DNA of 64,000 nucleotides from an uncultured Actinomycetota bacterium (GCA_963792805.1 CAWBXN010000003.1:38879-102878); one strand, 5' to 3'; positions 13,274-31,837 are shown, counted from the first letter of the stretch. Numbers and translations are program-made. The notes: generated by a model not told the origin, from the sequence alone.

Positions 13274-14872
13274 TCAGGCCAGCGAGACCAGATCCAGGTA
13301 GTCCGCGCCCCAGAGGTCCTCGTCGCCGTCCGGCAGCAGCAGCACCCGCTCGGGCGCCAGCGCCTGGACCGCGCCCTCGTCGTGGGTGACCATCACGATC
13401 GCGCCCCGGTAGCGGTGCAGCGCGTCGAGCACCTCCACGCGCGAGGCTGGGTCGAGGTTGTTCGTCGGCTCGTCGAGGAGCAGGACGTTCGCGCTGGAGA
13501 CCACGAGCGTGGCCAACGCGAGCCTGGCCCGTTCCCCGCCGGAGAGGACGCTGGCCGGCTTGTGCACGTCGTCTCCGACGAAGAGGAACGACCCCAAGAC
13601 GGTACGCACGCCCGTGTCGTCGAGGTCCGGGGCCGCCGAACGCAGGTTCTCCAGCACCGTGCGGCCCATGTCCAGCGTCTCGTGCTCCTGGGCGAAGTAG
13701 CCGAGCTTGAGCCCGTGCCCAGGCTCGACCTGCCCGGTGTCGGTCGGCTCCAGGCCGGCCAGCAGGCGTAGCAGCGTCGTCTTCCCAGCACCGTTGAGGC
13801 CGAGCACCACCACTCTGGACCCGCGGTCGATCGCGAGGTCCACGTCGGTGAAGACCTCCTCCGAGCCGTAGGACTTCGACAGCTCGTGGGCCATCAGCGG
13901 CGTCTTCCCGCAGGGGGCCGGCTCGGGCAGGCGCAGCTTCGCCACTCGGTCGGCCTTGCGTGTCTCCTCCAGCCCGGCCAGCAGTCGTTGGGCGCGCTTG
14001 TCCATGCTCTGCGCTGCCGAGGCCTTGGTCGCCTTGGCGCGCATCCGGTCAGCCTGGGACTTCAGAGCCGCCGCCTTGCGCTCGGCGCCCACCCGCTCGC
14101 GCCGGCGACGGCGCTCGTCCGTCTCCCGCTGCTGCAGGTAGCGCGTCCACCCCATCGCGTACACGTCGAGCGTGGTCCGGGTGGCGTCCAGGTGGAACAC
14201 GCCGTTGACGGTTCGCTCCAGCAGCGCGGTGTCGTGGCTGATGACCACCAGCCCACCGCGGAAGCCTCGCAGGAAGTCCCGCAGCCAGAGGATCGAGTCG
14301 GCGTCGAGGTGGTTCGTGGGCTCGTCGAGCAGCAGGACATCGGCCTGGGAGAACAGGATGCGCGCCAGCTCCACCCGGCGACGCTGCCCCCCCGACAGCG
14401 TGCCCAACGGCTGCTCCAGCACGCGGCTGGCCAGCCCGAGGCTCGCCGCGATCGAGGCGGCCTCGCTCTCGGCGGCGTAGCCCCCGCGAGCGAGGAACTC
14501 ACCCTCCAGGCGGGCGTATCGGCGCATCTCACGCTCCTGCTCCGCGCCGTCCAGCATCCCCAGCCGTTCCTCGGTGCTGTGCATGTCGGCCACCACCTCG
14601 TGCAGTCCGCGGGCGGCCAGGATCCGGTCGCGGGCCAGCAGCTCAGGGTCCGACGTCCGGGGGTCCTGCGGGAGGTAGCCGATCGTGCCCGTTCGGGTCA
14701 CTGTGCCCGCGGCCGGCTGAGCCTGGCCGGCGAGGATGCGCGTCATCGTGGTCTTCCCCGCACCGTTTCGCCCGACCAGGCCGATCTTGTCCCCGGGTCC
14801 GATGCGGAAGCTGGCGTCGACGAGCAACAGCTGGCTGCCGGCTCGAACCTCGAGGTCGGCGGCAGTGATCAC
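13274..14872 (-). CDS. ABC-F family ATPase (two ABC domains, no TM domain)
   Basis: ORF 13274..14872. Walker A motifs GRNGAGKTT and GLNGAGKTT. Signatures LSGGQRRR and LSGGERAR. Arg/Glu-rich interdomain linker. Confidence 0.9.
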   Translation of the reverse strand: MITAADLEVRAGSQLLLVDASFRIGPGDKIGLVGRNGAGKTTMTRILAGQAQPAAGTVTRTGTIGYLPQDPRTSDPELLARDRILAARGLHEVVADMHSTEERLGMLDGAEQEREMRRYARLEGEFLARGGYAAESEAASIAASLGLASRVLEQPLGTLSGGQRRRVELARILFSQADVLLLDEPTNHLDADSILWLRDFLRGFRGGLVVISHDTALLERTVNGVFHLDATRTTLDVYAMGWTRYLQQRETDERRRRRERVGAERKAAALKSQADRMRAKATKASAAQSMDKRAQRLLAGLEETRKADRVAKLRLPEPAPCGKTPLMAHELSKSYGSEEVFTDVDLAIDRGSRVVVLGLNGAGKTTLLRLLAGLEPTDTGQVEPGHGLKLGYFAQEHETLDMGRTVLENLRSAAPDLDDTGVRTVLGSFLFVGDDVHKPASVLSGGERARLALATLVVSSANVLLLDEPTNNLDPASRVEVLDALHRYRGAIVMVTHDEGAVQALAPERVLLLPDGDEDLWGADYLDLVSLA

Positions 14873-14983
14873 GCCCCCAGGATGCCCGAGGAGGCGGTCA
14901 GGTCCGAATCGGGCGCAGTCCCGAGTGGCGCAGCCGGCGGAGCTCCCCGCGAGGCTGCCGAGCCGTCACCGCGGATCGCGCGA

Positions 14984-15469
14984 TCACGTGCGCAGGATTC
15001 CCTCGACCACCACGGACTTCGCGTCGGCGTACTCCTGCGCGCTGGCCCAGTCCCGGGCCGCGAGCTCACGCTTGGTCTGGGCGTAGCGCGCCCGCGCGGG
15101 TGGGCTGGAACGCAGACGGTCAGCGAAGCGCACCATCCGGTCGGTCTCGAGGCAGCCGTGCGGGAAGACGTGCAGGTGCACGTCGGGGGAGGTCCGGCGC
15201 AGCAGCCGATGCTCGTACCACTCAGGCTCGCGGATCGACACGGAGTAGCCGAGCACAGCCAGTCTCGGGACATAGGCACCCTCGAGCGCCGGGTCAGCCA
15301 CCTCCACCACGAGGTCGAGCACCGGCTTCGCCGCGAGCCCCGGCACGCTGGTAGAGCCGACGTGCTCGAGCCGACCGACAGCAGGCCCGAGGGCCTCCGC
15401 CAGCCCGGCCAGCTCTGCGGCCGCCAGCGCGGGCCAGCGCGGGTCGGGCGTCGCCAGCTCGACGCGGAT
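14984..15469 (-). CDS. GrpB (UPF0157) family protein, apparently starting at a non-canonical codon
   Basis: ORF track gives 14984..15346, but the same frame stays open to 15511. It encodes the GrpB N-terminal region (IRVELATPDPRWPALAAAELAGLAEALGPAVGRLEHVGSTSVPGLAAKP). There is no ATG/GTG/TTG upstream of 15346. ATC at 15467-15469 sits 6 nt after CAGGAGAGGAG. Confidence 0.65.
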   Translation of the reverse strand: MRVELATPDPRWPALAAAELAGLAEALGPAVGRLEHVGSTSVPGLAAKPVLDLVVEVADPALEGAYVPRLAVLGYSVSIREPEWYEHRLLRRTSPDVHLHVFPHGCLETDRMVRFADRLRSSPPARARYAQTKRELAARDWASAQEYADAKSVVVEGILRT

Positions 15470-15500
15470 CGGTGGCTCCTCTCCTGGGCCCGTCGCCGGG

Positions 15501-16067
15501 TCAGGCGGCGATCAGGACGTCCCCGGTCTGGGTCGGCGGGGCACTCGCCGCGTGCTGCAGGGCCGCGTCGAGAAGCGTCTGGTACGTGGCGCCGCCCCAG
15601 ATGTTGCCGCCGTAGATGGACGCCCCGTCAGCCCCCTTGAAGGTCATCATCTGCACGTTCGCGCTCGTTGGTCCGCTTCGGTCCTTCCACTTGATGTGCA
15701 CGACCGCCCACGGACGCCCGTCGGCCAGTACCCGCATCTCGATGTTGTGGTGGGGGAAGTTGGCGGAGCGCCACCACTTGACCGGCTGGAGGACCACACG
15801 ACCGGCCGTGTGCAGCTCCTGGAACCCCGCTTCCCCGATGGCCGGGAGCACAGGTACCGCCCGGACGGCCCCGCCCGGGACGAAGGCCGGTGCGTTCGGA
15901 TCGAAGCCGCGCTGCACCTTCAGCAGGCCCGCCACGGCTCGGTTGCCGGCCTGCTGCTGCAGGCGCTGCAGCTGGTGCATCGGCGCTGGACCTGGGACGG
16001 AGGCGTGAGGGTGCAACGTGGTCGCACCTGCAAGGACCTCGTCATCTCGCCGCCGCGGCTGGCGCAT
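15501..16067 (-). CDS. hypothetical protein with N-terminal LQRLQQQAGNRAVAGLL leader and an unknown C-terminal domain
   Basis: ORF 15501..16067. ATG preceded by GGGAGG with 6-nt spacing. The leader motif is shared with ORF 26945..27946. The C-terminal ~130 aa (WWRSANFPHHNIEMRVLADGRPWAVVHIKWKD...) has no recognisable family or HExxH motif. Confidence 0.6.
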   Translation of the reverse strand: MRQPRRRDDEVLAGATTLHPHASVPGPAPMHQLQRLQQQAGNRAVAGLLKVQRGFDPNAPAFVPGGAVRAVPVLPAIGEAGFQELHTAGRVVLQPVKWWRSANFPHHNIEMRVLADGRPWAVVHIKWKDRSGPTSANVQMMTFKGADGASIYGGNIWGGATYQTLLDAALQHAASAPPTQTGDVLIAA

Positions 16068-16143
16068 CGGGTACCTCCCTACCGACTCATGAGCCTATTC
16101 CGGCAAGCGGGCGGGAGGTCAGGGAATCCTCCATGATGGGCCC

Positions 16144-16626
16144 ATGGAGAGGATCGCAGGGCTCCGGCCCGGGGCGCGCGCGGTCGCGCTGGCGTTCCTG
16201 GCCAGTGGCACCGTCCACCTCGTCCGTCCTTCGGTGTTCCGCCCGCTCGTCCCCCCGGCCCTGCCGGCCAAGGACGAGCTCATCCTGGTCACCGGCGTCG
16301 CCGAGCTCGCCTGCGCCATCGGCCTCGGGCGTGGTGCCCGCTGGGCCCCGGCGGCCAGCGTTGCCACCCTGCTCGCGGTCTGGCCGGGCAACTGGTGGAT
16401 GGCCATCGAGCTGCAGCGCCAGCCCACGTCTCCGCCGATGCTGCGGGCCGCGGCCTGGCTGCGGGTCCCCCTGCAGATCCCGATGATCCTGGCGGCACTC
16501 GACCCGGTGGCGCGCCGCGAGCCTTCGCTCACTGGTAGACCGTCATGGCGACACGAGCCGCATTGGGGATCGTCCCGTCGGAGACCAGTGCGACCCAACC
16601 GCCCCGCGAGAGCACCTGCTCGATGA
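16144..16626 (+). CDS. DoxX-like small membrane protein
   Basis: ORF 16144..16626. Hydrophobic helices with LASGTVHLVRPSVFRPLVPPALP and VWPGNWWMA, reminiscent of DoxX-like proteins. The C-terminal ~30 codons overlap the convergent gene and may not be conserved. Confidence 0.5.
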   Translation: MERIAGLRPGARAVALAFLASGTVHLVRPSVFRPLVPPALPAKDELILVTGVAELACAIGLGRGARWAPAASVATLLAVWPGNWWMAIELQRQPTSPPMLRAAAWLRVPLQIPMILAALDPVARREPSLTGRPSWRHEPHWGSSRRRPVRPNRPARAPAR

Positions 16627-17626
16627 GCTCGTCGACGGCGTCGTCGATCACGCCCGGCTCGGCCGGGTCTGCCGCCGGTTCGAGCGCCTCGGTCTGCGGG
16701 TCCAGGCGCGCCGGGTAGAAGAACCCCTCTTCCACCGCCAGCATCTCCGGTCGATCCCACGCTGCAGCCCGCCAGCAGTCGTCGATCCCCAGCACGGCGC
16801 GACGCTGGCCCGCTCGCTCCTCCACCAGTGCCAGGGCCTCTCTCTCACGGCCCCGCAGGTACTCCTCCAGGAGGGGGGCGCAGCGCCGGGACAGCTCGCT
16901 CAGCGGCGCCTCCGGGTGGTTGACGTGGATGGTCCCGGCAAGGCGCCGCAGGTTGTTCGACAGGCCGAGGAACGTCGACAACGTCGGGTCGGCAGCAGCC
17001 ACCACGAGTGGCGCGGGACGCAGCCGAGCGTAGGTCCCGAGCGACGTGTCGACCGTCCGCAGGAACGTCTCCGCGCTGCTGCCCCCGTCCGAGGCCAACG
17101 GGAAACCCGCGGTCCGCACCGGCGTCAGGTGGCCGAGGGCCGCATCGAAGAGCTTCGCCTCATCGGCGGCGAGGACGAGCAGCAGATGACGAGGGGTCCG
17201 GTGCAGGGCACGGACGAGGTCGCGGGTCGCGAAGGTCGGGTCCACCACGCACCGGGCCCGAACCAGGATCGGCAGATCCACCACGTCGCTGACATCACGG
17301 TTCACGAAGACCGCCAGCCCGTCGCGAACCGGGCGGTCGGCGAGCTCGGCGAGGGCCGCGTCGAGCCGGGCCAGCGTCTGCTCGAGATGCTCGGTCGGTT
17401 CCTGGCGCAGCCTGGTCGCGGCTTCGGCAGCGAGGGTCTCGAGCATCGCCCGGTCATCCTCGGTGAGCCGGTCCCCTGGTGTGGTGGGAAGCAGCAGGCT
17501 GACGCAGGGGTAGCCGCGGACGGACTGCAGCTGCATGACCGCTGCGGGGTCGAGCGGATGGACACGAAGCTGGGGCACGGGTTCCTCCTCGAGGACAAGT
17601 GGACGGGCCTCGAGGTCTCCTCCCAT
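16529..17626 (-). CDS. bacterial archaeo-eukaryotic release-factor-like (baeRF family) protein, tentative
   Basis: ORF 16529..17626. N-terminal pattern GYPCVSLLLPTTPGDRLTEDDRAMLETLAAEAATRL and the mid-region LAVFVNRD resemble baeRF3-type proteins as I recall them. An alternative GTG start at 17578 follows GAGGAGG. Confidence 0.45.
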   Translation of the reverse strand: MGGDLEARPLVLEEEPVPQLRVHPLDPAAVMQLQSVRGYPCVSLLLPTTPGDRLTEDDRAMLETLAAEAATRLRQEPTEHLEQTLARLDAALAELADRPVRDGLAVFVNRDVSDVVDLPILVRARCVVDPTFATRDLVRALHRTPRHLLLVLAADEAKLFDAALGHLTPVRTAGFPLASDGGSSAETFLRTVDTSLGTYARLRPAPLVVAAADPTLSTFLGLSNNLRRLAGTIHVNHPEAPLSELSRRCAPLLEEYLRGREREALALVEERAGQRRAVLGIDDCWRAAAWDRPEMLAVEEGFFYPARLDPQTEALEPAADPAEPGVIDDAVDELIEQVLSRGGWVALVSDGTIPNAARVAMTVYQ

Positions 17627-17805
17627 GCCATCCGGTGGCGGGCTCGGACCGAGTGCCGGGGCACTGTGCTGACGACCCGAGCGAGGGCCGCCACGGCGGC
17701 CCCGGAGTACTCCCCTCGTCCGAGGACGCTAGCGGAGCGGCCCGGCGCCGGCACCTTGGCGATGGCTCCGGTGGGCGCCCCCGACGGCCGGAGCACGATG
17801 GCATC

Positions 17806-18648
17806 GTGCTCATCCTGCTGCCGCCGTCGCAGGCCAAGGCTTCGCCCAGCCGCGGCCGTCCGCTGGACCTCGACCGGCTGCGCCTGCCCGCGCTGCACGA
17901 GCACCGCACCGCCGTCCTCGCCGCCCTCGTGCAGCTCTCACTGGGACCCGCGGCCGAGGCACGCCGCGTCCTAGGCCCTGGCCCGACGCAGCACGACGCC
18001 CTGCTTGGCAACGCCGGGCTGCCCTCGGCGCCGACCCGACCGGCTCGCGAGGTCGACCGCGGAGTGCTCGACGAGGCGTTGGGGCTGACTCGCCTCCCAG
18101 CTACCGCTGCTCGCCGGGCCTCCGCCTGGCTCCTGGTCTGCTCGGGCCTGTGGGGGGCGGTCCGTCCGGCTGACCGCATCCCGGCCCACCGGCTCCCCGG
18201 CTCGACGGTCCTGCCGGGCATCGGCCCGCTCGCGCGGTCCTGGCAGGGTCCACCGGCCCGGGCGTTCAGCACCTTGCCGCACTCCACGCGGTCGGGGCTG
18301 GTCCTCGACCTCCGCTCCAGCGCCTATGCCCCGATGCGGCGGCCGAGCCAGTCGATGGCTGAGCGCACGGTGACGGTGCGGGTCGTGCACGACCTGTCCT
18401 CCGGGGCAGGCAGCGCCGTGAGCCACCAGAACAAGGCGACCAAGGGCCGGCTGGCTCGGGGCCTCCTGCTCGATGGCGGAACCCCCCGGACAGGAGGCGA
18501 GCTGCGGGAACACCTGACCAGGTTGGGATGGACCGTCGCCGAGGGGCCACGACCCAACACCCTGGACGTGGCGCAGTGCCTGGCAGCGCAGTCAGGCAGG
18601 CTCGGTCCCTTCACGCGTTCCGTCGGAGGGTTCCGCCATCATTCGAAC
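17806..18648 (+). CDS. yaaA: YaaA (DUF328/UPF0246) peroxide-stress protein homologous segment, with no stop codon of its own
   Basis: GTG at 17806 gives VLILLPPSQAKASPSRG (YaaA opening LLPPSEGK). Similarity runs to about 18570 (NTLDV). The frame then continues without a stop into the HNH gene (single ORF 17599..20064). Confidence 0.7.
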
Positions 18649-20064
18649 ATGAGTTCGATCAGCCGTCCGGACGCCGTCCTCCACGGCGACCCGGGGGTCA
18701 GGTGCCCGGCGTCGGACATCGTCGACGGGCTCATTGGGGAGCTGCACACCACGCTGGGCCGCTTGTTGGCTGCACCGGCGGCCGCGACGGAATCGCGAGG
18801 CGATGTCGTGGCGAGACTGCTCCGAGCGCAGGCTCGCCTCGAGGCGGTGACGTTGACGGCGCTGGCGGCATTCGATGCGGTCGACGGTGCGACGGCGTCC
18901 GGGGACGGGTCGACCGCGGTCTGGCTGTCGCGTGCCACGACCACGTCCCCGGCGCAGGCCGCCGGCATGGTCCGCTCAGCCCGGGTACTCCACGAGCATC
19001 TGCCCGCTACCCGAGCCGCCCTCGCTGCTGGCGACATCTCGGGTCGGCATGCCAACGCCGTCGTCGCCGTCGTGGGGCGGGTCGGCGCACGTCACGCTCA
19101 AGCAGCCGAGCCTCTGCTCCTGGATCTGGCGCGGCGGGCGGAGCCCGGCGCGGTGCGGGCAGCCGGCCGCTACCTGCATGAGGTCTTGGATCCTGCCGGA
19201 GCGGAGCGGGCCTGCTCGCGTGAGTACGAGCGCCGCGGGGTCTCCTTCTCCATCTCTGGCTCCGGCTCTGGAGGCCGCGGGTACCTGGAGGGCGTGCTGG
19301 ACCCGGAGTCGGCTGAGCAGCTGCAGGCAGCATTGATGCCGCTCATGGCTCCGACGCCCGGTGACACCCGCACGGCCACGCAGCGTCGGGCCGATGCCCT
19401 GGTCGACCTGGCCAGGCGTGCCCTGGATGTGGGAGACCTGCCAGCCGTGACGGGAACCGGACAACGTCCGCACGTCTCGGTGGTCGTCGAGGCCTCGACC
19501 TTGGCCGGCGGGGGCGGGGTTGGTGTGCTGCCGTGGACGTCGGCTGCGATCGGATGGGGGTCGCTGCGAAGGCTGTCCTGCGACGCGCGGCTGACCCCGG
19601 TCCTCACCCGGCTCCACGGCTCCGGGACCGGCGGCGCGGGCGCGTGGCTGCCGATCGCCGTGGGTCGTTCCAGTCGAACGGTGACGCCGTCGCAGGCAGC
19701 GGCCCTCCGCGTGCGTGACGGTGGCTGCGTGATCCCCGGATGCAGCCGGACCTATGCCTTCACCCACGCCCACCACGTGCAGCACTGGGCGGACGGTGGG
19801 CCGACAGACCTGAACAACCTCGTGCTGCTGTGTGGCCACCATCACCGAGCCCTGCATCAGGGCCACTGGGTGGTGAGGCCGGTCGCCGACGGCGAGGGCT
19901 TCGAGGTCACCGATCGCCACGGACGCACGCAGCCGGCCCAGCACGCCGGTAATCGCGCTCCTCCGGCCGGGTTGGCGGCATCGCCGGATCCTGCGAGACC
20001 AGATCGCGGTCCGGGGAGCCCCGATCCTGGTGGGGCCCCCGCGACTGGCTTCCGCACGAGCTGA
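18649..20064 (+). CDS. DUF222-domain HNH endonuclease (REP13E12-type element protein)
   Basis: ATG at 18649 in the same frame as yaaA. DUF222-like N-terminal region. HNH motif CSRTYAFTHAHHVQHWADGGPTDLNNLVLLCGHHHRALH. Confidence 0.85.
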   Translation: MSSISRPDAVLHGDPGVRCPASDIVDGLIGELHTTLGRLLAAPAAATESRGDVVARLLRAQARLEAVTLTALAAFDAVDGATASGDGSTAVWLSRATTTSPAQAAGMVRSARVLHEHLPATRAALAAGDISGRHANAVVAVVGRVGARHAQAAEPLLLDLARRAEPGAVRAAGRYLHEVLDPAGAERACSREYERRGVSFSISGSGSGGRGYLEGVLDPESAEQLQAALMPLMAPTPGDTRTATQRRADALVDLARRALDVGDLPAVTGTGQRPHVSVVVEASTLAGGGGVGVLPWTSAAIGWGSLRRLSCDARLTPVLTRLHGSGTGGAGAWLPIAVGRSSRTVTPSQAAALRVRDGGCVIPGCSRTYAFTHAHHVQHWADGGPTDLNNLVLLCGHHHRALHQGHWVVRPVADGEGFEVTDRHGRTQPAQHAGNRAPPAGLAASPDPARPDRGPGSPDPGGAPATGFRTS

Positions 20065-21820: not shown

Positions 21821-22210
21821 CTAGGACGCGGTGGCTGAGTGAGCAACGATCCACGCAGCGATCTGTGGCACGTCGAGTTGGCCGGACGCCGCACTGAGCA
21901 TCAGGTCCTCGGCCTCGTCGACGGTGTAGGTCAGGTCCCGTCCGTTGAGCAGGCAGAAGACGCGTGCTGCCGACCATGCCAGTCGCTTGTTCCCATCCAC
22001 GAGCGCGCGATTGCGGACCGATGAGTGCAGCAGGGCCGCGGCCTTGTCCTCGAAGGTCGGGTAGGCGTCGTCACCGAAGACGGTGATCTGGGGGCGGGCC
22101 GTGGCTGCCTCCAGAAGGCCGGCGTCCCTGACCACCACGTGCTCGATCACTCCGGCGGCGATCTCGAGGAGGTCCTCGACCGAGAGGTAGTCGATCTCCG
22201 CAGCGTTCAC
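21821..22210 (-). CDS. death-on-curing (Doc/Fic-fold) family toxin
   Basis: ORF 21821..22210. Doc motif region HSSVRNRALVDGNKRLAW (GNKR core present, but the position of the conserved His is Arg). 129 aa. Overlaps the upstream antitoxin stop by 4 nt. Confidence 0.85.
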   Translation of the reverse strand: MNAAEIDYLSVEDLLEIAAGVIEHVVVRDAGLLEAATARPQITVFGDDAYPTFEDKAAALLHSSVRNRALVDGNKRLAWSAARVFCLLNGRDLTYTVDEAEDLMLSAASGQLDVPQIAAWIVAHSATAS

Positions 22211-22404
22211 TCGCTCAGGCGCTCAAGCAGCTCGCGATCCTCGGTGCGGACACGCTGGATGGCACCCAGCAGTCGCTGCGGGCGGTCCGAGACGTACTGG
22301 GCGATGGCGGTGCGGGCGACCTCCTGCATCGAGCGCCCTTCCTGCTCGGCCTTCGCGCGCAGGGCGTCGCTCTCGGCGTCGGTGAGTCGGAGATTCATCG
22401 CCAT
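22207..22404 (-). CDS. ribbon-helix-helix antitoxin (Phd/CopG-like) paired with Doc
   Basis: ATG at 22404 inside ORF 22207..22764: MAMNLRLTDAESDALRAKAEQEGRSMQEVARTAIAQYV. 65 aa. Translationally coupled to doc. Confidence 0.8.
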   Translation of the reverse strand: MAMNLRLTDAESDALRAKAEQEGRSMQEVARTAIAQYVSDRPQRLLGAIQRVRTEDRELLERLSE

Positions 22405-23152: not shown

Positions 23153-24067
23153 TCACACGCCGGCGACGTAGGCGGTGAGGAAGTGGACGCCGTGCCGGTC
23201 CAGGTTCCCGCGGGCGCGGTCGTCGTGCTCGGTGGTACGGGGGTCGGCGTGTCGGGCCAGGATCTGCGCATCACGCTGGGGGACGCCCGCGTCCAAGGCG
23301 TTGGTGACCGCGGCATGGCGCAGCGAGTGAGGACTGATGTGCCGCGGGATACCCGCGGTCGTCGCGATCGGGGTGACCATGCGGTAGGCGTCACGGCGGG
23401 TGATCGGCTTCCCGGACACCGGTCGAAGCACCAGCGGCCCGGAGGTGCGCTGGCCCCGGCAGGCTTCCAGGACCCGCAGCACCGGCACGGTGAGGGGCAT
23501 GGTGGCCGGCTTGTTGCCCTTGCCGACCAGAAGGAGCACCCGGTGCCCGCGCAGGGTGTCGGCGTCGTGCTCGATGTGGACGGCGGCGGCCTCCGACGCG
23601 CGCAAGGCATTGATCCCGAGCAGGAAGGCCAGGGCGCCGTGGTGCACGCTCACCGTCTGGGCTACCTGCAGGAAGCGGATCAGCTCGAGTCGGTCCAGTC
23701 CCTGGGTGCGCGACTCGTCCCGCTGCACCCTCGGCAGCCGCGCCTACACAACCGGGTCGGCGGTGATCAGCCCGTCGACGTGGGCGAAGCGGAAGAACCC
23801 CCGCACCCCGTGCAACATCGTCACCACGGAGGAGTCCATCAGCCCCCGCTCTCCCAGGCCACGGATGTACAGCTCGACGTGGGCACGTTGGATCCCGACC
23901 AGCGGGTCCAGCCCATGGCGCTCGCACCAGGCGAACCACTCCCGCAGCTGGAAGGCGTACAAGGCGTGGGTCCGCCCGGAGTAGCGGGCCAAGAACGACT
24001 CCGCCGCCAACTGGGCGGTCGACATCCGCGACGGCTGGAACGGCAGCAAGGTCGTCGCACCGGACAT
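23153..24067 (-). pseudogene. tyrosine recombinase/phage integrase interrupted by one in-frame TAG
   Basis: ORFs 23744..24067 (SAM-like N-domain) and 23153..23728 (catalytic domain with ALRASE, HSLRHA, terminal Tyr in LTAYVAGV) are in the same frame. They are separated only by TAG at 23744-23746 (...ITADPVV*ARLPRVQRDESRTQGL). Confidence 0.8.
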
Positions 24068-24366
24068 GGGTCACCTCACGTGGCGACCTCACACAAGGCC
24101 CACACCGAGCCCGCCGCCGACACGGCCAGGCACCCGGACCCACCGACGCTAGCCCCGGTCCGCATCCCCGTGAACTGCGTCCGCAGGCGGCGGTAGGACT
24201 CACAGGAGAACGCCCGACTCGCCGCATTCCGTGCGAGTGTTGATCGGAAGCCCGTCGTCGGCGATGGTGCCCCTGATCCGGTAGTCACCGGCGAGTACTC
24301 GCTGTGCTGGGCGTTCCTGGGGTGAGGGCGACGCCGACGTCGTGGATATCGGAGAACCCGGGTCGC

Positions 24367-25295: not shown

Positions 25296-26725
25296 ACGGC
25301 CGAGACTGTCCGGAACAACGGTGTAACTGGCCCAACTCGCCGACCGGTGGTCGGCAGGAAGGTCGGTTGTGATGACCGAGACACTGGCGGGCATGAGCTC
25401 GCTGAAGAAGGCCATGACGAAGACGGCCACGCCGGCGGATGCTGAGCGTGCCGCGGTGCGGGAGCTGGTCAGGTCGGCCCGCGCGCGTGGTGAGGATCTG
25501 ACCGGGCCTGACGGCCTGTTGAAGGGGATCACCAAACAGGTCTTGGAGGCCGCGCTCGAGGAGGAGATGACCGAGCACGTCGGGTATGACAAGCATGCCG
25601 TTCAGGGACACAACAGCGGCAACTCCCGCAACGGCACGAGGACCAAGACGGTGCTGACCGACAACGCCGGCGAGGTGCAGGTGCAGGTGCCGCGGGACCG
25701 TGACGGCACCTTCGCACCGGTGATCGTCAGGAAACGGCAGCGTCGGTTGTCCGACGTCGACGCGGTGGTGCTGTCGCTGTACGCCCGTGGGCTCACCACG
25801 GGGGAGATCTCGGCGCACTTCGCCGAGGTGTACGGGGCGTCGGTGTGCAAAGACACGGTCTCGCGGATCACCGACCGGGTGATCGAGGACATGCAGGTCT
25901 GGTCCTCGCGGCCGCTGCAGGGCGTGTACGCGGTGATCTTCATCGACGCAATCATGGTGAAGGTCCGCGACGGCCAGGTCGGCAACCAGCCGTTCTACGC
26001 CGCCATCGGGGTCGATCTGCGTGGTCACCGCGACGTGCTCGGCCTGTGGTCCGGAAATGGTGGCGGAGAGTCGGCAAAGTTCTGGATGAACGTGCTCACC
26101 GACATCAAGAACCGCGGCGTGCACGACGTGTTCTTCATCGTGTGCGACGGGCTGAAGGGCCTGCCCGACAGCGTGAGCGCCGTCTTCCCGGCAGCGATCG
26201 TGCAGGCATGCATCATCCACCTGATCCGCGGGACGTTCCGCTACGCCTCCAAGCGCTACTGGGACCAGCTCGCCAAGGACCTGCGACCCATCTACACCGC
26301 CCCGAACGCTGAGGCCGCGTGGGCGGCGTTCGAGGAGCTGGAGGAGAAATGGGGCAAGGCCTACCCGGCCATCCCCAAGCTGTGGCGCAACGCCTGGAAC
26401 GAGTTCATTCCCTTCCTCGACTACGACGTGGAGATCAGACGCGTGCTGTGCTCGACGAACGCGATCGAGTCGCTCAACGCCCGCTACCGGCGGGCCGTGA
26501 ACACCAAAGGACACTTCCCCACCGAGCAGGCCGCACTCAAGACCCTGTACCTGGTCACCCGATCCCTGGACCCAAAGGGCCTCGGACAGGCACGATGGGT
26601 TACCCGGTGGAAGCCAGCACTCAACGCCTTCGCCATCACCTTCGCCGACCGCATGCCGGCCGCGGAGACCCTGTAATGATCAACACCGGTTACACCGTTC
26701 GTCGGACAGACCCGATTTCGGCCGT
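25296..26725 (+). mobile_element. IS256-family insertion sequence
   Basis: Single transposase gene flanked by imperfect inverted repeats: GACTGTCCGGAACAACGGTGTAACTGG (25304..25330) and the reverse complement of 26686..26711 (GTCTGTCCGACGAACGGTGTAACCGG). An outer ACGGCCGA/TCGGCCGT pair lies at 25296 and 26725. Exact ends and target duplication are not resolved. Confidence 0.8.
25369..26676 (+). CDS. IS256-family (Mutator-type) transposase
   Basis: ORF 25369..26676, 435 aa. Typical IS256 transposase sequence (LKGITKQVLEAALEEEMTEHVGYDKH, RNGTRTKTV, FIDAIMVKVRDG, CDGLKGLPD, NAIESLNARYRR). Confidence 0.95.
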   Translation: MMTETLAGMSSLKKAMTKTATPADAERAAVRELVRSARARGEDLTGPDGLLKGITKQVLEAALEEEMTEHVGYDKHAVQGHNSGNSRNGTRTKTVLTDNAGEVQVQVPRDRDGTFAPVIVRKRQRRLSDVDAVVLSLYARGLTTGEISAHFAEVYGASVCKDTVSRITDRVIEDMQVWSSRPLQGVYAVIFIDAIMVKVRDGQVGNQPFYAAIGVDLRGHRDVLGLWSGNGGGESAKFWMNVLTDIKNRGVHDVFFIVCDGLKGLPDSVSAVFPAAIVQACIIHLIRGTFRYASKRYWDQLAKDLRPIYTAPNAEAAWAAFEELEEKWGKAYPAIPKLWRNAWNEFIPFLDYDVEIRRVLCSTNAIESLNARYRRAVNTKGHFPTEQAALKTLYLVTRSLDPKGLGQARWVTRWKPALNAFAITFADRMPAAETL

Positions 26726-26944: not shown

Positions 26945-27946
26945 GTGACGTCGGGCACGAATAGAGTGGAGATGGTGAGATTGCGCACATTTGCGCATGA
27001 CCCTGCCGACACCCCGGAGGCTGCTCGCCCTCGGGTGCTTCCGACTCACCCGGAGCGCGTCGACAACAATGCTCTGGTGGCCGCGTCCATCGTGTCGATG
27101 CAGCGCCTGGCCGGCAACCGGGCGGTGGCGAGTCTGCTGAGAACCGAGTCGACCGACGAGCGAGGGCGGCCGGATGCGGACGCCCAGCCGTCACCAGCGC
27201 CGCGAGATGTTGGTGTGGAAACCGGTCGCGCGGCATCGGCTGCCCGCCGCGCCGTTTCAACTGACGGGCGCGGCGTGGACGACGAGATCGCGGACAGTCG
27301 TCAGCTTGTTCAGCGCCAGGGCGGTGGCGCGCCTGCCGGACCAACGACTCCGATTGCGGTACGCAACGGCCCAGGCCACGTGCCGATCGACACCGCGGCC
27401 GCTGCCGGGATGGCGATCGACATCACCTTGACCTCCTCGACCGGCGTGGATGCGGACATGGCCGCCATCCTCGACAGCGAGCAGGTCAGTTCGTCGGTCA
27501 ATCACACGGGTTCGTATTCCAAGGTCCCGTCCCGTCGCAGCAACAACAGCGGGTATATGCCCGGCCACCCCATCCCCGCCGACCGCCACAGTGAGTCCAA
27601 AGCCGATATCATCGACACTGCGGACAATCACGGCGGGAACGGGAGCTTCGAACGGCTCCAGCTCGACACCTGGAAACCGAACGCAGCGGGCGCAGAGGCC
27701 GCAATTCCGAATTCCGGATATTTCATCAAGCGGAGCATCATCACGAACGGCACGGGAATCCGATACCGGACCGAGAAGGGTCCTCGCGCGGTCTCTGCGA
27801 ACGGGTTCAGCAGCACCGCGGGGCCTTCGCCGGTGCAGGCGGAGGAGGTCGAGGTCAGGCCACCCGCAGCCGCCCCGGCACCGGCTGCGCCGAAAGCCGC
27901 CAGCCCCGGCAAGTGGAAGAGGTTCCTGAAGTGGCTCGGACTCTGA
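26945..27946 (+). CDS. hypothetical protein with LQRLAGNRAVASLL-type N-terminal leader, unknown central domain and Ala/Pro-rich basic tail
   Basis: ORF 26945..27946 in a visibly lower-GC stretch. Leader MQRLAGNRAVASLL at about residues 52-65. Start uncertain (GTG 26945, ATG 26972 or TTG 26981). No catalytic motif recognised. Tail PPAAAPAPAAPKAASPGKWKRFLKWLGL. Confidence 0.6.
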   Translation: MTSGTNRVEMVRLRTFAHDPADTPEAARPRVLPTHPERVDNNALVAASIVSMQRLAGNRAVASLLRTESTDERGRPDADAQPSPAPRDVGVETGRAASAARRAVSTDGRGVDDEIADSRQLVQRQGGGAPAGPTTPIAVRNGPGHVPIDTAAAAGMAIDITLTSSTGVDADMAAILDSEQVSSSVNHTGSYSKVPSRRSNNSGYMPGHPIPADRHSESKADIIDTADNHGGNGSFERLQLDTWKPNAAGAEAAIPNSGYFIKRSIITNGTGIRYRTEKGPRAVSANGFSSTAGPSPVQAEEVEVRPPAAAPAPAAPKAASPGKWKRFLKWLGL

Positions 27947-27956
27947 GGAGGGCACG

Positions 27957-28415
27957 ATGCAGGACGGAGCCTCATTTCGCAAGGTCGCCCCGTTGCTGTC
28001 ACTACGACCAGAGGACGAGCAGCTGCTCGCGACGTACGACTCGTTCGACGACAGGGGAGTACCCGCGAACGGGTATCGCATCACGCTGTTGACCGCGACG
28101 CCCTCGATCGCGGTCAACGAGGTGGTCGGGATCGTGCATGTGTGCGAGTCGGTCTCGGACGATGCACCTTTGTATGTGATGGGCCCGAAGCCGGTCTGGG
28201 GTGAGTACGTCGACGGCGTGCTGGCCACCGATCCGTCGCCGACGCCGAGCAATCCGTTCGAGCTGGCCTCCTACGACGGACGCGTGCTGCCCGGACCGGG
28301 AATTGATGGCAACTACGAGGTCACCCAGTACCAATTCAGTGAGCCAGGTGTGCACACAGTTCAGTGGCGGCTGGAGCCCACCGTCTCGAACATGCTGCGG
28401 TTCACGGTATCTTGA
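27957..28415 (+). CDS. hypothetical 152-aa protein translationally coupled to 26945..27946
   Basis: ORF 27957..28415. The ATG lies 10 nt after the upstream stop, and the SD GAGGAGG overlaps that stop. Same low-GC composition. No signal peptide, TM segment or known motif. Confidence 0.55.
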   Translation: MQDGASFRKVAPLLSLRPEDEQLLATYDSFDDRGVPANGYRITLLTATPSIAVNEVVGIVHVCESVSDDAPLYVMGPKPVWGEYVDGVLATDPSPTPSNPFELASYDGRVLPGPGIDGNYEVTQYQFSEPGVHTVQWRLEPTVSNMLRFTVS

Positions 28416-30991: not shown

Positions 30992-31837
30992 TCAGGCGAC
31001 GGGCTGGTCCTGACGCTGACCTGCCGGTGCCGGGTCGACAGCCGAACCCATCTCCGAGGCTTCGAACGCCGCGTCGTAGAAGAAGCTCTTCTTACGCGCG
31101 ATCTTGTAGATGAGCAGGCCGAACACGGCCTTGGCGACGACGTCCGCGATGGCGTAGCCAACGTTGCGCAGGACGAACGCGTCCGCCCCGTCGAACCCGA
31201 CCATCGGGAACAGGTAGGCGATCGGGTAGACGCCCCACGTGGCCACGAGCACCCAGCGCAGGTTCTTGATGTTGCGCACGACCGGGGCGGGCTGGCGCTC
31301 GATCGACCGGGTGAGCTCGCCGAAGAGGACCCAGAGGATGTAGAGGAAGGGAATGGTGGACAGGGCCCCCCAGATGCCGCGGGTGAGGTTGTCGGTGGCG
31401 ATCTCGCCCGGGTAGCCCAGCGCGATCATCAGCGCCGAGGCGGGGACGAGCCGGATCAAGAGTCGGTTGGCGTCCTGGCGGGCGAGTGCGAGGATGGCGA
31501 CGGTCTCGACGAGCAGCAGCGGGACCGTCAGGAACCAGTCGACGTAGCGGTAGAGCTCGTTGAATGCCACCCCCTCCGCCAGGCGATAGCTGCCCTGCCC
31601 ACCGACGGCGTCGGTGACGTACGCCTCCTGGAAGTTGGCGAAGATCCGCAGGTAGTGGTAGGCGGCGATGCCGGTCACCATGGCCGAGATCGCGACTGCC
31701 TGGCGGTAGCGGGGAAGGACCCTGGGCAGGGAGACGAGCAGGAAGAGCGTCGCGAACAGCATGCTCGCGACGACGAACGAGAACGAGTTGTAGACGAGGT
31801 CGAACTGACCCTTGGTCAGTTCTTCTACTCCCACCAT
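30992..31837 (-). CDS. type-1 microbial rhodopsin, proteorhodopsin/xanthorhodopsin/actinorhodopsin-like (DTE motif, predicted outward proton pump)
   Basis: ORF 30992..31837. ATG preceded by AACAGGAGGCATC. Seven hydrophobic helices. Helix B AAYHYLRIF. Helix C RYVDWFLTVPLLLVE gives D/T/E at the PR D97/T101/E108 positions and Leu at the PR-105 position. Helix G YAIADVVAKAVFG carries the Schiff-base Lys four residues after the Asp. Confidence 0.9.
   Translation of the reverse strand: MVGVEELTKGQFDLVYNSFSFVVASMLFATLFLLVSLPRVLPRYRQAVAISAMVTGIAAYHYLRIFANFQEAYVTDAVGGQGSYRLAEGVAFNELYRYVDWFLTVPLLLVETVAILALARQDANRLLIRLVPASALMIALGYPGEIATDNLTRGIWGALSTIPFLYILWVLFGELTRSIERQPAPVVRNIKNLRWVLVATWGVYPIAYLFPMVGFDGADAFVLRNVGYAIADVVAKAVFGLLIYKIARKKSFFYDAAFEASEMGSAVDPAPAGQRQDQPVA

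Follow-up and report, generated by a model that had tools for sequence, protein, structure and literature searches.

A shared N-terminal leader on two unrelated proteins of an uncultured Actinomycetota bacterium and its genetic link to contractile injection systems

INTRODUCTION

The closest described counterparts of the proteins reported here are the polymorphic toxins of Photorhabdus virulence cassette (PVC)-type contractile injection systems (CIS) and the toxins associated with extracellular CIS (eCIS-associated toxins, EATs), which join a constant N-terminal part to a variable C-terminal cassette (Zhang et al. 2012; Geller et al. 2021; Danov et al. 2024). DUF4157 (PF13699, eCIS_core), a core marker of eCIS, is located N-terminal to or beside the toxins (PMC8213781; PMC11297309), and many PVC-type toxins have no immunity genes (PMC3482391). 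In this study we analyzed a stretch of 64 000 nucleotides from an uncultured Actinomycetota bacterium (GCA_963792805.1, CAWBXN010000003.1:38879-102878), referred to below as the window, and within it the gene at positions 15501-16067. Its product (protein 1) shares a short N-terminal leader with an otherwise unrelated protein that is encoded in a small mobile island at 26945-27946 (the island protein).

Association of PVC effectors with the particle is mediated by Pvc15 by way of N-terminal signals (PMC11495950; PMC9054023), and a Cdc48/p97-like clade of AAA ATPases was assigned to the PVC secretory system by Zhang et al. (PMC3482391). Loading of AlgoCIS cargo requires the disordered region N-terminal to DUF4157, not DUF4157 itself, and loading sequences are not conserved between systems (preprint, 10.64898/2026.05.27.728243). 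In Streptomyces lividans, a small DUF4157 protein binds both the proteins of the spike complex and the N-terminus of a cargo (PMC13277306).

The two window proteins resemble the PVC-type toxins and EATs in combining a constant N-terminal part with a variable C-terminal cassette, and protein 1 also in its non-globular N-terminus and the absence of an adjacent immunity gene. They differ from them in lying beyond the reach of any CIS operon and in having C-terminal domains that belong to no described toxin family. Injection-system effector genes are often encoded away from the operon, and current eCIS effector predictors use operon proximity, DUF4157 and physico-chemical features of the N-terminus. 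From the evidence presented below, we think it probable that protein 1 is an orphan cargo of the PVC/eCIS-type polymorphic effector class, encoded away from its machinery.

RESULTS

Two window proteins carry the same leader

The leader has the consensus hh-x-LQR-x-h-GN-x-AV-xx-LL (h, hydrophobic; x, any residue), usually followed by h-Q-R. This motif class is defined here; no database entry was found for it, and no description of an LQR..GN.AV motif was found in the searchable literature. The features of the two proteins are as follows.

15501-16067, minus strand: gene for protein 1, 188 amino acids plus stop, with an N-terminal leader region and a C-terminal KWW domain (ORF listing, codon-position GC)
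16074-16079, minus strand: Shine-Dalgarno sequence GGGAGG, then a 6-nt spacer and the ATG at 16067 (read from the sequence)
15861-16067, minus strand: residues 1-69 of protein 1, rich in Pro, Ala, Gln and Arg, without a hydrophobic signal or transmembrane segment; holds the leader
15909-15977, minus strand: leader core, residues 31-53, HQLQRLQQQAGNRAVAGLLKVQR, with LQR, GN-x-AV, LL and the trailing VQR (motif coordinates, leader model)
15504-15860, minus strand: KWW C-terminal domain, residues 70-188 (alignment A1, AlphaFold2 model)
26945-27946, plus strand: island protein (protein 2) with the same leader, SMQRLAGNRAVASLL at 27098-27139
about 27305-27319, plus strand: LVQRQ of the island protein, residues 121-125, about 12 residues before its C-terminal domain
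27344-27862, plus strand: unrelated beta-rich C-terminal domain of the island protein (AlphaFold2 predicted local distance difference test (pLDDT) 96.9)
27957-28415, plus strand: partner gene of 152 amino acids, directly downstream of the island protein

An initial annotation of the window had pointed out a Q-R-L-x-AGNRAVA element common to the two proteins, with no detectable similarity downstream of it, and had left its frequency in random high-GC translations to be determined. The observation was confirmed. AGNRAV occurs exactly twice in the six-frame translation of the window, once in each of the two open reading frames (ORFs), and the sole BLASTP alignment between the proteins joins residues 36-52 of protein 1 to residues 52-68 of the island protein (10 of 17 identical). 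We built an independent hidden Markov model (HMM) of the leader from 27 leader segments of island-protein relatives from outside the window, which had themselves been retrieved through the C-terminal domain. Among 910 six-frame ORF fragments of the window, this model matches only the island protein (E 2e-9) and protein 1 (E 2e-4), with the next fragment at E 0.29. The extended leader motif has two occurrences in the window and 0.0 per random window. Shared 7-mers between distant loci (261 in the window, about 197 in second-order Markov random windows) were dropped as evidence, since random high-GC sequence yields about 200 such pairs. The leader motif is thus real and common to both proteins irrespective of their C-terminal domains.

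The leader of protein 1 reads LQR-LQQ-QAGN where the consensus has LQRxAGN, and is a slight variant of it (an R to Q change or a three-codon repeat). The trailing VQR of protein 1 occupies residues 51-53 (15909-15917, minus strand), and its counterpart in the island protein residues 122-124 (27308-27316, plus strand). In both window proteins this h-Q-R element is located at the border with the C-terminal domain, where it may serve for processing or docking.

The leader is widespread and precedes many unrelated domains

We searched metagenome contigs with a degenerate DNA pattern for L-Q-R-x-x-G-N-[RQHP]-A-[VIM]-x-x-h-h and found the leader in at least 120 loci, both GC-rich and GC-poor, from many environments. 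Of the first 80 matches, 78 prove to be leaders read in frame within long ORFs, most of them at a distance of 30-60 residues from the earliest possible start. Positions that the pattern leaves free are conserved among the matches listed, to which the counts in the rest of this paragraph and the next also refer: position -8 is V, L or I in 84%, position -7 is L in 64%, and position -1 is A, I, V or L in 94%. The pattern matches are therefore homologous and not artefacts. In 122 leader ORFs, the stretch 8-40 residues behind the GN shows an enrichment of about 19-fold in [VLIM]-Q-R (median position +19), at a frequency of 1.54 per 100 amino acids compared with a background of 0.08.

A Pfam search of 78 leader ORFs identified eCIS_core in 16, about a fifth. 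Other domains behind the leader include EndoU_bacteria (in locus L028, without DUF4157), Endonuclea_NS_2, Peptidase_M15_4 (three ORFs), YkuD, OmpA (two ORFs), PG_binding_1 and F-box, and the majority of the 78 have no Pfam match. The metallopeptidase signature HExxHxxQ is present in the ORFs of 34 of 138 leader matches, several of these ORFs being cut by contig ends, and about three quarters of the sampled leader ORFs have no DUF4157 signature. Tandem leader genes occur in nine loci. With unrelated domains behind the leader in the KWW, island and metagenome proteins alike, the architecture of polymorphic effectors that had been proposed from the two window proteins is supported.

Viral contigs gave 20 matches to the short leader pattern, nearly all by chance in non-coding frames and only one of them real (L021), and three matches to the longer pattern, of which L148 is spurious. 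The real match is on a phage-like IMG/VR contig (L021, 1821-4400) with a small terminase subunit, Phage_tail_X and a ParB-methylase, where two leader ORFs stand in tandem, one of them with eCIS_core. The leader/DUF4157 module is thus also present in an apparently real phage.

The leader is genetically coupled to a CIS ATPase

Among 142 neighboring ORFs from 24 leader loci, three combine WHD (PF22977) with an AAA domain. Using these ORFs as phmmer queries, we detected a CIS ATPase (E<=1e-74) in 9 of 120 leader loci among the matches listed; by locus length, it is present in 1 of 30 loci shorter than 2 kb, 1 of 45 of 2-4 kb, 3 of 27 of 4-8 kb and 4 of 18 of 8 kb or more. No WHD+AAA ATPase was found in the remaining loci examined outside those 120. 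The AAA part of the enzyme is Cdc48/p97-like.

The arrangement of the genes is recurrent. In most of the nine loci, at least six (L076, L109, L115, L119, L131 and L135), the start of a leader ORF coincides with the ATPase stop codon or follows it closely on the same strand, and an overlapping fragment is found in L088. In five of these seven (L076, L088, L109, L115 and L119) the ORF that follows the ATPase encodes a small leader-plus-DUF4157 protein; in L036 such a protein is encoded near the ATPase on the opposite strand. This ATPase-then-leader synteny suggests co-translation or a core partnership.

Two loci display further CIS genes. Locus L088 (3292-11518) encodes Pvc16_N (E 4e-44), a DUF4280/PAAR protein, a GerE regulator and the WHD+AAA ATPase, together with four leader ORFs of differing C-termini (one calpain-like, one with DUF4157 and two unannotated). 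Three of these four have no HExxH, so leader-only proteins do occur inside CIS loci. In L109, one ORF that lies upstream of the region with the ATPase matches a 'Baseplate protein J-like' chain in the PDB (9gtp, E 5e-34) and, weakly, AlgoCIS Alg12; no PDB relative was found for the small leader-plus-DUF4157 protein or for the 851-amino-acid ORF of the same locus. The leader is found beside CIS genes far more often than chance would allow, and in these loci it is genetically coupled to the CIS ATPase.

The gene for protein 1 is intact and has native composition

The reading frame that the initial annotation had placed at 15501-16067 exists and encodes 188 residues from the ATG at 16067, on the minus strand, which had not been stated; the good ribosome-binding site claimed for it is also there, with GGGAGG at 16079-16074 ending 6 nt before the ATG. 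GC content by codon position (GC1 0.73, GC2 0.52, GC3 0.85) is like that of the neighboring genes and fits a genuine gene. Local GC around the gene is 71-72%, equal to its flanks, and that of the island with the second protein is 60-68%. The public gene call (P0001) is 159 amino acids long and starts at M30 of this frame. We favor the 188-residue start because it has the ribosome-binding site and places the GN of the leader at residues 41-42, compared with 40-50 in relatives. A scan of 14800-16700 for promoters and terminators found none.

The N-terminal region of protein 1 has no Pfam or NCBIfam match, and the protein has no match to PF13699 at E<=1. We examined it for signals of other export routes. 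Its highest Kyte-Doolittle average over 19 residues is 1.33, and the highest 12-residue hydropathy within the first 60 residues is 0.81; neither an N-terminal hydrophobic h-region of the Sec/Tat type nor a segment of transmembrane grade was found. As for a type VII secretion system (T7SS) substrate, there is no WXG100 or LXG Pfam match at E<=1, and the sole WxG tripeptide, at residue 157, lies inside the KWW domain and not in an N-terminal helical domain. Neither HExxH nor YxxxD/E is present.

The KWW domain is a rare, conserved C-terminal module

A word-indexed homology search with protein 1 in a collection of 5.8 billion sequences returned only the protein itself. An exhaustive HMMER pass over 1.84 billion representatives identified 23 KWW proteins, all matching residues ~70-185 of protein 1 and all with the domain at the C-terminus; the closest homologue in the database is at most 58% identical. 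A profile search with alignment A1 (18 sequences) added four short fragments, and a profile search of species-representative genome contigs, among which the source genome is not included, added one metagenome-assembled genome of the Solirubrobacteraceae (L025). The domain was not found in the viral contigs searched. Residues W98, W99, N108, E110, W120, H124 and K144 (numbering of the 188-residue protein) are invariant in A1, and K126 and W127 are kept in at least 90% of KWW sequences. Protein 1 retains every invariant residue.

This 119-residue domain is found behind at least four different N-terminal architectures. P0079 (L002) has that of protein 1, with LHETAGNGAVASLFVQRML followed by APAFVPG and the KWW domain, and P0066 has the leader LSLQSTAGNQAVAGLVQRR ahead of it. 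In L001 and L025 a leader of the form HGVLALQRS[LV]GN is followed by a coiled coil, proline-rich repeats and the domain. P0069 has eCIS_core (E 2.3e-32), then a helical linker and the KWW domain, and its helical middle region is also present in several other KWW relatives. The KWW genes of L001 (4540-5492) and L025 (9277-10348) are broken by frameshifts at differing places, probably through errors in the assembly of long-read metagenomes, in which case P0058 and P0063 in the database would be truncated versions.

The AlphaFold2 model of the domain is confident (pLDDT 94.9, predicted TM-score 0.88) and consists of a helix, five strands and a helix, to which the extreme C-terminus adds a short strand. 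N108/E110 and H124/K126 are each spaced i, i+2 on neighboring predicted strands, so that the two residues of a pair should point to one side of their strand, and K144 is on the next strand, which suggests from predicted secondary structure that the conserved N108, E110, H124, K126 and K144 are displayed on one face of the sheet. We infer that the domain is an enzyme or toxin. The C-terminal part had been described as a compact domain with no recognizable catalytic motif. No match to it was found in the PDB by sequence profile (best E 0.57), in the PDB by Foldseek (best E 0.59, TM-score at most 0.35) or in BFVD by Foldseek (best E 0.27); Pfam searches with 18 members gave nothing consistent, and NCBIfam gave no match. 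A BECR-type RNase fold, suggested by the helix-then-antiparallel-sheet order and the His, Glu and Lys residues, had no Foldseek support and was dropped.

The island protein belongs to a second family with varied N-termini

The C-terminal domain of the island protein (RNGPxHxPID...DSEQV...NHTGS) has 55 relatives with four kinds of N-terminus: the leader alone, the leader with a glycine zipper (PF13441), the leader with eCIS_core/DUF4157 (PF13699; P0036 and P0041), and unrelated membrane or coiled-coil regions. Both C-terminal domains thus behave as swappable cassettes. No fold match to the island domain was found in the PDB. One NCBIfam match to a LAS/VanX-type peptidase (E 0.028) is far below the cut-off and without fold support, and was rejected.

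The partner gene at 27957-28415 encodes a protein that is 46% identical (E 9e-42) to the product of a gene overlapping the 3' end of an island-protein homologue in L003/L004; neither Pfam nor NCBIfam contains a match to it. Together with the island protein it forms a conserved two-gene module, possibly of a toxin and its immunity protein, although the partner may also be an accessory protein.

DISCUSSION

We consider protein 1 probably an orphan cargo of the PVC/eCIS-type CIS polymorphic effector class. Its N-terminal ~55 residues, which are non-globular, carry a linear leader motif that elsewhere marks proteins encoded beside the CIS AAA+ ATPase. The leader would let the loading apparatus, a Pvc15-type ATPase and/or a small leader-plus-DUF4157 protein that binds the spike complex, recruit protein 1 into or onto the particle, and the 119-residue KWW domain would be the delivered payload. 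We infer that the leader is a loading signal and that the source genome has a CIS. Since protein 1 is without DUF4157 and away from any CIS operon, it is filed as working like, and evolutionarily connected to, the EAT class, and the most economical reading is that of a new cargo module within a known effector class, not a new kind of system. A bolder proposal, which we put forward only tentatively, is that LQR-x-h-GN-x-AV-xx-LL (with h-Q-R) constitutes a sequence-defined, cross-phylum cargo tag of DUF4157-type CIS that works without DUF4157, and that KWW is a new effector fold.

Described systems share several features with the leader proteins. Like PVC-type toxins and EATs, members of both window families have eCIS_core; in them it stands behind the leader and ahead of the C-terminal domain of the respective family. 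By description, the leader is like the loading sequences of PVC Pdp1 and Pnf (via Pvc15) and of AlgoCIS Cgo1 and Cgo2 in being a disordered N-terminus of ~50 residues, separable from the payload and genetically linked to a Cdc48-like AAA+ ATPase; it differs in that the published sequences are described as system-specific, whereas the leader is a defined signature that recurs across loci. Sle2 (SLIV_17110) of S. lividans and the DUF4157 N-terminus of Tme in S. davawensis share with protein 1 an actinobacterial setting. Sle2 adjoins structural genes and binds spike proteins, and the leader-plus-DUF4157 protein beside the ATPase in L036, L076, L109, L115 and L119 is similar to it. In contrast to Sle2 and Tme, protein 1 has no DUF4157 and has a distinct globular C-terminal domain, and so resembles cargo more than an adaptor.

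A number of observations weigh against a cargo role. The window has no gene for a sheath, tube, baseplate, Pvc15/16, PAAR or DUF4157 protein in a Pfam scan of all sizeable ORFs over its 64 kb, in agreement with the earlier remark that no secretion or injection machinery is encoded there; the scan found housekeeping genes and a small mobile island, with no CIS operon within about ten genes of protein 1 and no DUF4157 gene within two positions. Protein 1 and the island protein themselves carry only the short motif that is normally upstream of DUF4157, and in protein 1 that motif is slightly off-consensus, with LQQ replacing LQR beside the GN. The nearest KWW relatives, as far as their contigs reach, are among housekeeping genes, and the family has no conserved immunity-like neighbor (GrpB in the window; unrelated genes in L002, L025 and L027). 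The KWW fold comparisons give no hint of an activity. No CIS ATPase is within reach in 14 of the 18 long leader loci among the matches listed, and DUF4157 is also known outside CIS settings, for example in mycobacterial Rv2189c, beside ripC (PMC12067865). The window without machinery, the long loci without an ATPase, the housekeeping surroundings and the mycobacterial DUF4157 would suit leader proteins that work here without any CIS, the leader being a generic pre-toxin or partner-binding peptide and the protein leaving by another route (for example lysis-dependent release or an unrecognized export system) or acting inside the producer cell; the CIS link seen in other organisms would then have no bearing on this genome. 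Relatives of the island-protein family, too, are among housekeeping genes, and no injection system has been described in the mycobacterial setting of DUF4157 (PMC12067865). We regard this as unlikely in view of the ATPase in 9 of 120 listed loci, with the ATPase-then-leader order in most, and of the features of protein 1, which has no Sec/Tat-like segment, YxxxD/E or T7SS-type Pfam domain and a single WxG confined to KWW. An orphan location is moreover common among injection-system effector genes.

The proteins could also be CIS-linked effectors whose leader serves maturation and not recruitment: the DUF4157 zincin would dock at it or cut it, whether in cis or in trans, and LQR...GN and h-Q-R would mark the site at which the N-terminal region is bound or cleaved so that the C-terminal module is released. 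The enrichment of h-Q-R after the leader and its place at the domain border in both window proteins fit this, Zhang et al. proposed the PVC-metallopeptidase as a releasing peptidase (PMC3482391), and a small leader-plus-DUF4157 protein adjoins the ATPase in most ATPase loci. It is nevertheless improbable, given that AlgoCIS loading needs the region N-terminal to DUF4157 with DUF4157 dispensable (10.64898/2026.05.27.728243) and that Cgo1 toxicity is independent of its metalloprotease motif (cited in PMC11297309). That the gene is a decaying, non-functional relic of a former effector cassette is very improbable: the intact ORF, strong Shine-Dalgarno sequence, native codon-position GC, full set of invariant residues and confident AlphaFold model all speak for a working gene, against which can be set its orphan position, the LQQ and the lack of any homologue above 58% identity. 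Shared 7-mers are common in six-frame translations of DNA of 71% GC, and a chance resemblance of two unrelated high-GC ORFs was considered on that ground. It is hardly credible, as the independent HMM picks out only these two ORFs, the extended motif is missing from random windows, and relatives from either family, like the leader proteins of at least 120 metagenome loci, conserve the motif at this N-terminal position.

If the proposed role as a CIS cargo leader is true, a short motif would flag CIS cargo genome-wide, without DUF4157 and far from the operon, and enlarge predicted effector repertoires; on the bolder proposal, even an orphan like 15501-16067 could be placed among the effectors of a CIS by its sequence alone. 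The leader would be a candidate portable tag for loading foreign cargo into engineered injection systems, and two unannotated payload domains with confident predicted structures and no known relatives, KWW and the beta-rich island domain, would join the effector catalogue. Even the conserved proteins of the source genome are singletons at 90% identity, and this lineage without close sequenced relatives keeps at least two leader proteins near its replication origin.

OTHER GENES OF THE WINDOW

Downstream of the gene for protein 1, GrpB is encoded on the same strand; the other two neighbors are a divergent, weak DoxX-like gene and baeRF_family3. None of the three recurs beside KWW relatives, and there is therefore no immunity candidate. 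The GrpB frame (14984-15511, minus strand) has its Pfam match from residue 17 of the stop-to-stop translation, and its first ATG, GTG or TTG is located 55 codons into the frame. At 15469-15467, 32 nt after the stop of protein 1, an ATC that is in frame and has GGAGAGGAG ahead of it looks like a non-canonical GrpB start. The baeRF_family3 protein, bacterial release-factor-like (E 2e-22), is encoded at 16529-17626 on the minus strand, beyond the DoxX-like gene upstream of protein 1, and no link to the leader finding was seen.

Most of the window is origin-proximal actinobacterial housekeeping sequence, with parA, parB, a gene for an R3H/Jag-type protein, murJ, the CCA-adding enzyme and ino1, as well as PBP1, FemAB, rpsF, dnaB, rhodopsin, ABC-F ATPase, WS/DGAT and Dyp peroxidase genes. 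The small island at ~21.8-28.8 kb comprises Fic, a split integrase, an IS256-type transposase, the island protein and the partner gene. Its Fic/Doc gene is at 21821-22222 and its transposase at 25369-26676. The integrase is divided into two adjacent ORFs on the minus strand, one with the N-terminal SAM-like domain (23744-24070) and one with the catalytic domain (23153-23743), and is probably inactivated.

In an ORF of 821 amino acids at 17599-20064 (plus strand), residues 71-290 match a YaaA peroxide-stress domain, and residues 404-759 match DUF222 and an HNH endonuclease. Either yaaA has been joined in frame to a mobile HNH element on its downstream side, or the ORF conflates two genes. The bacteriorhodopsin-like gene (E 5e-42) is located at 30992-31837 on the minus strand, between dnaB and the rpsF cluster, near the replication origin region.

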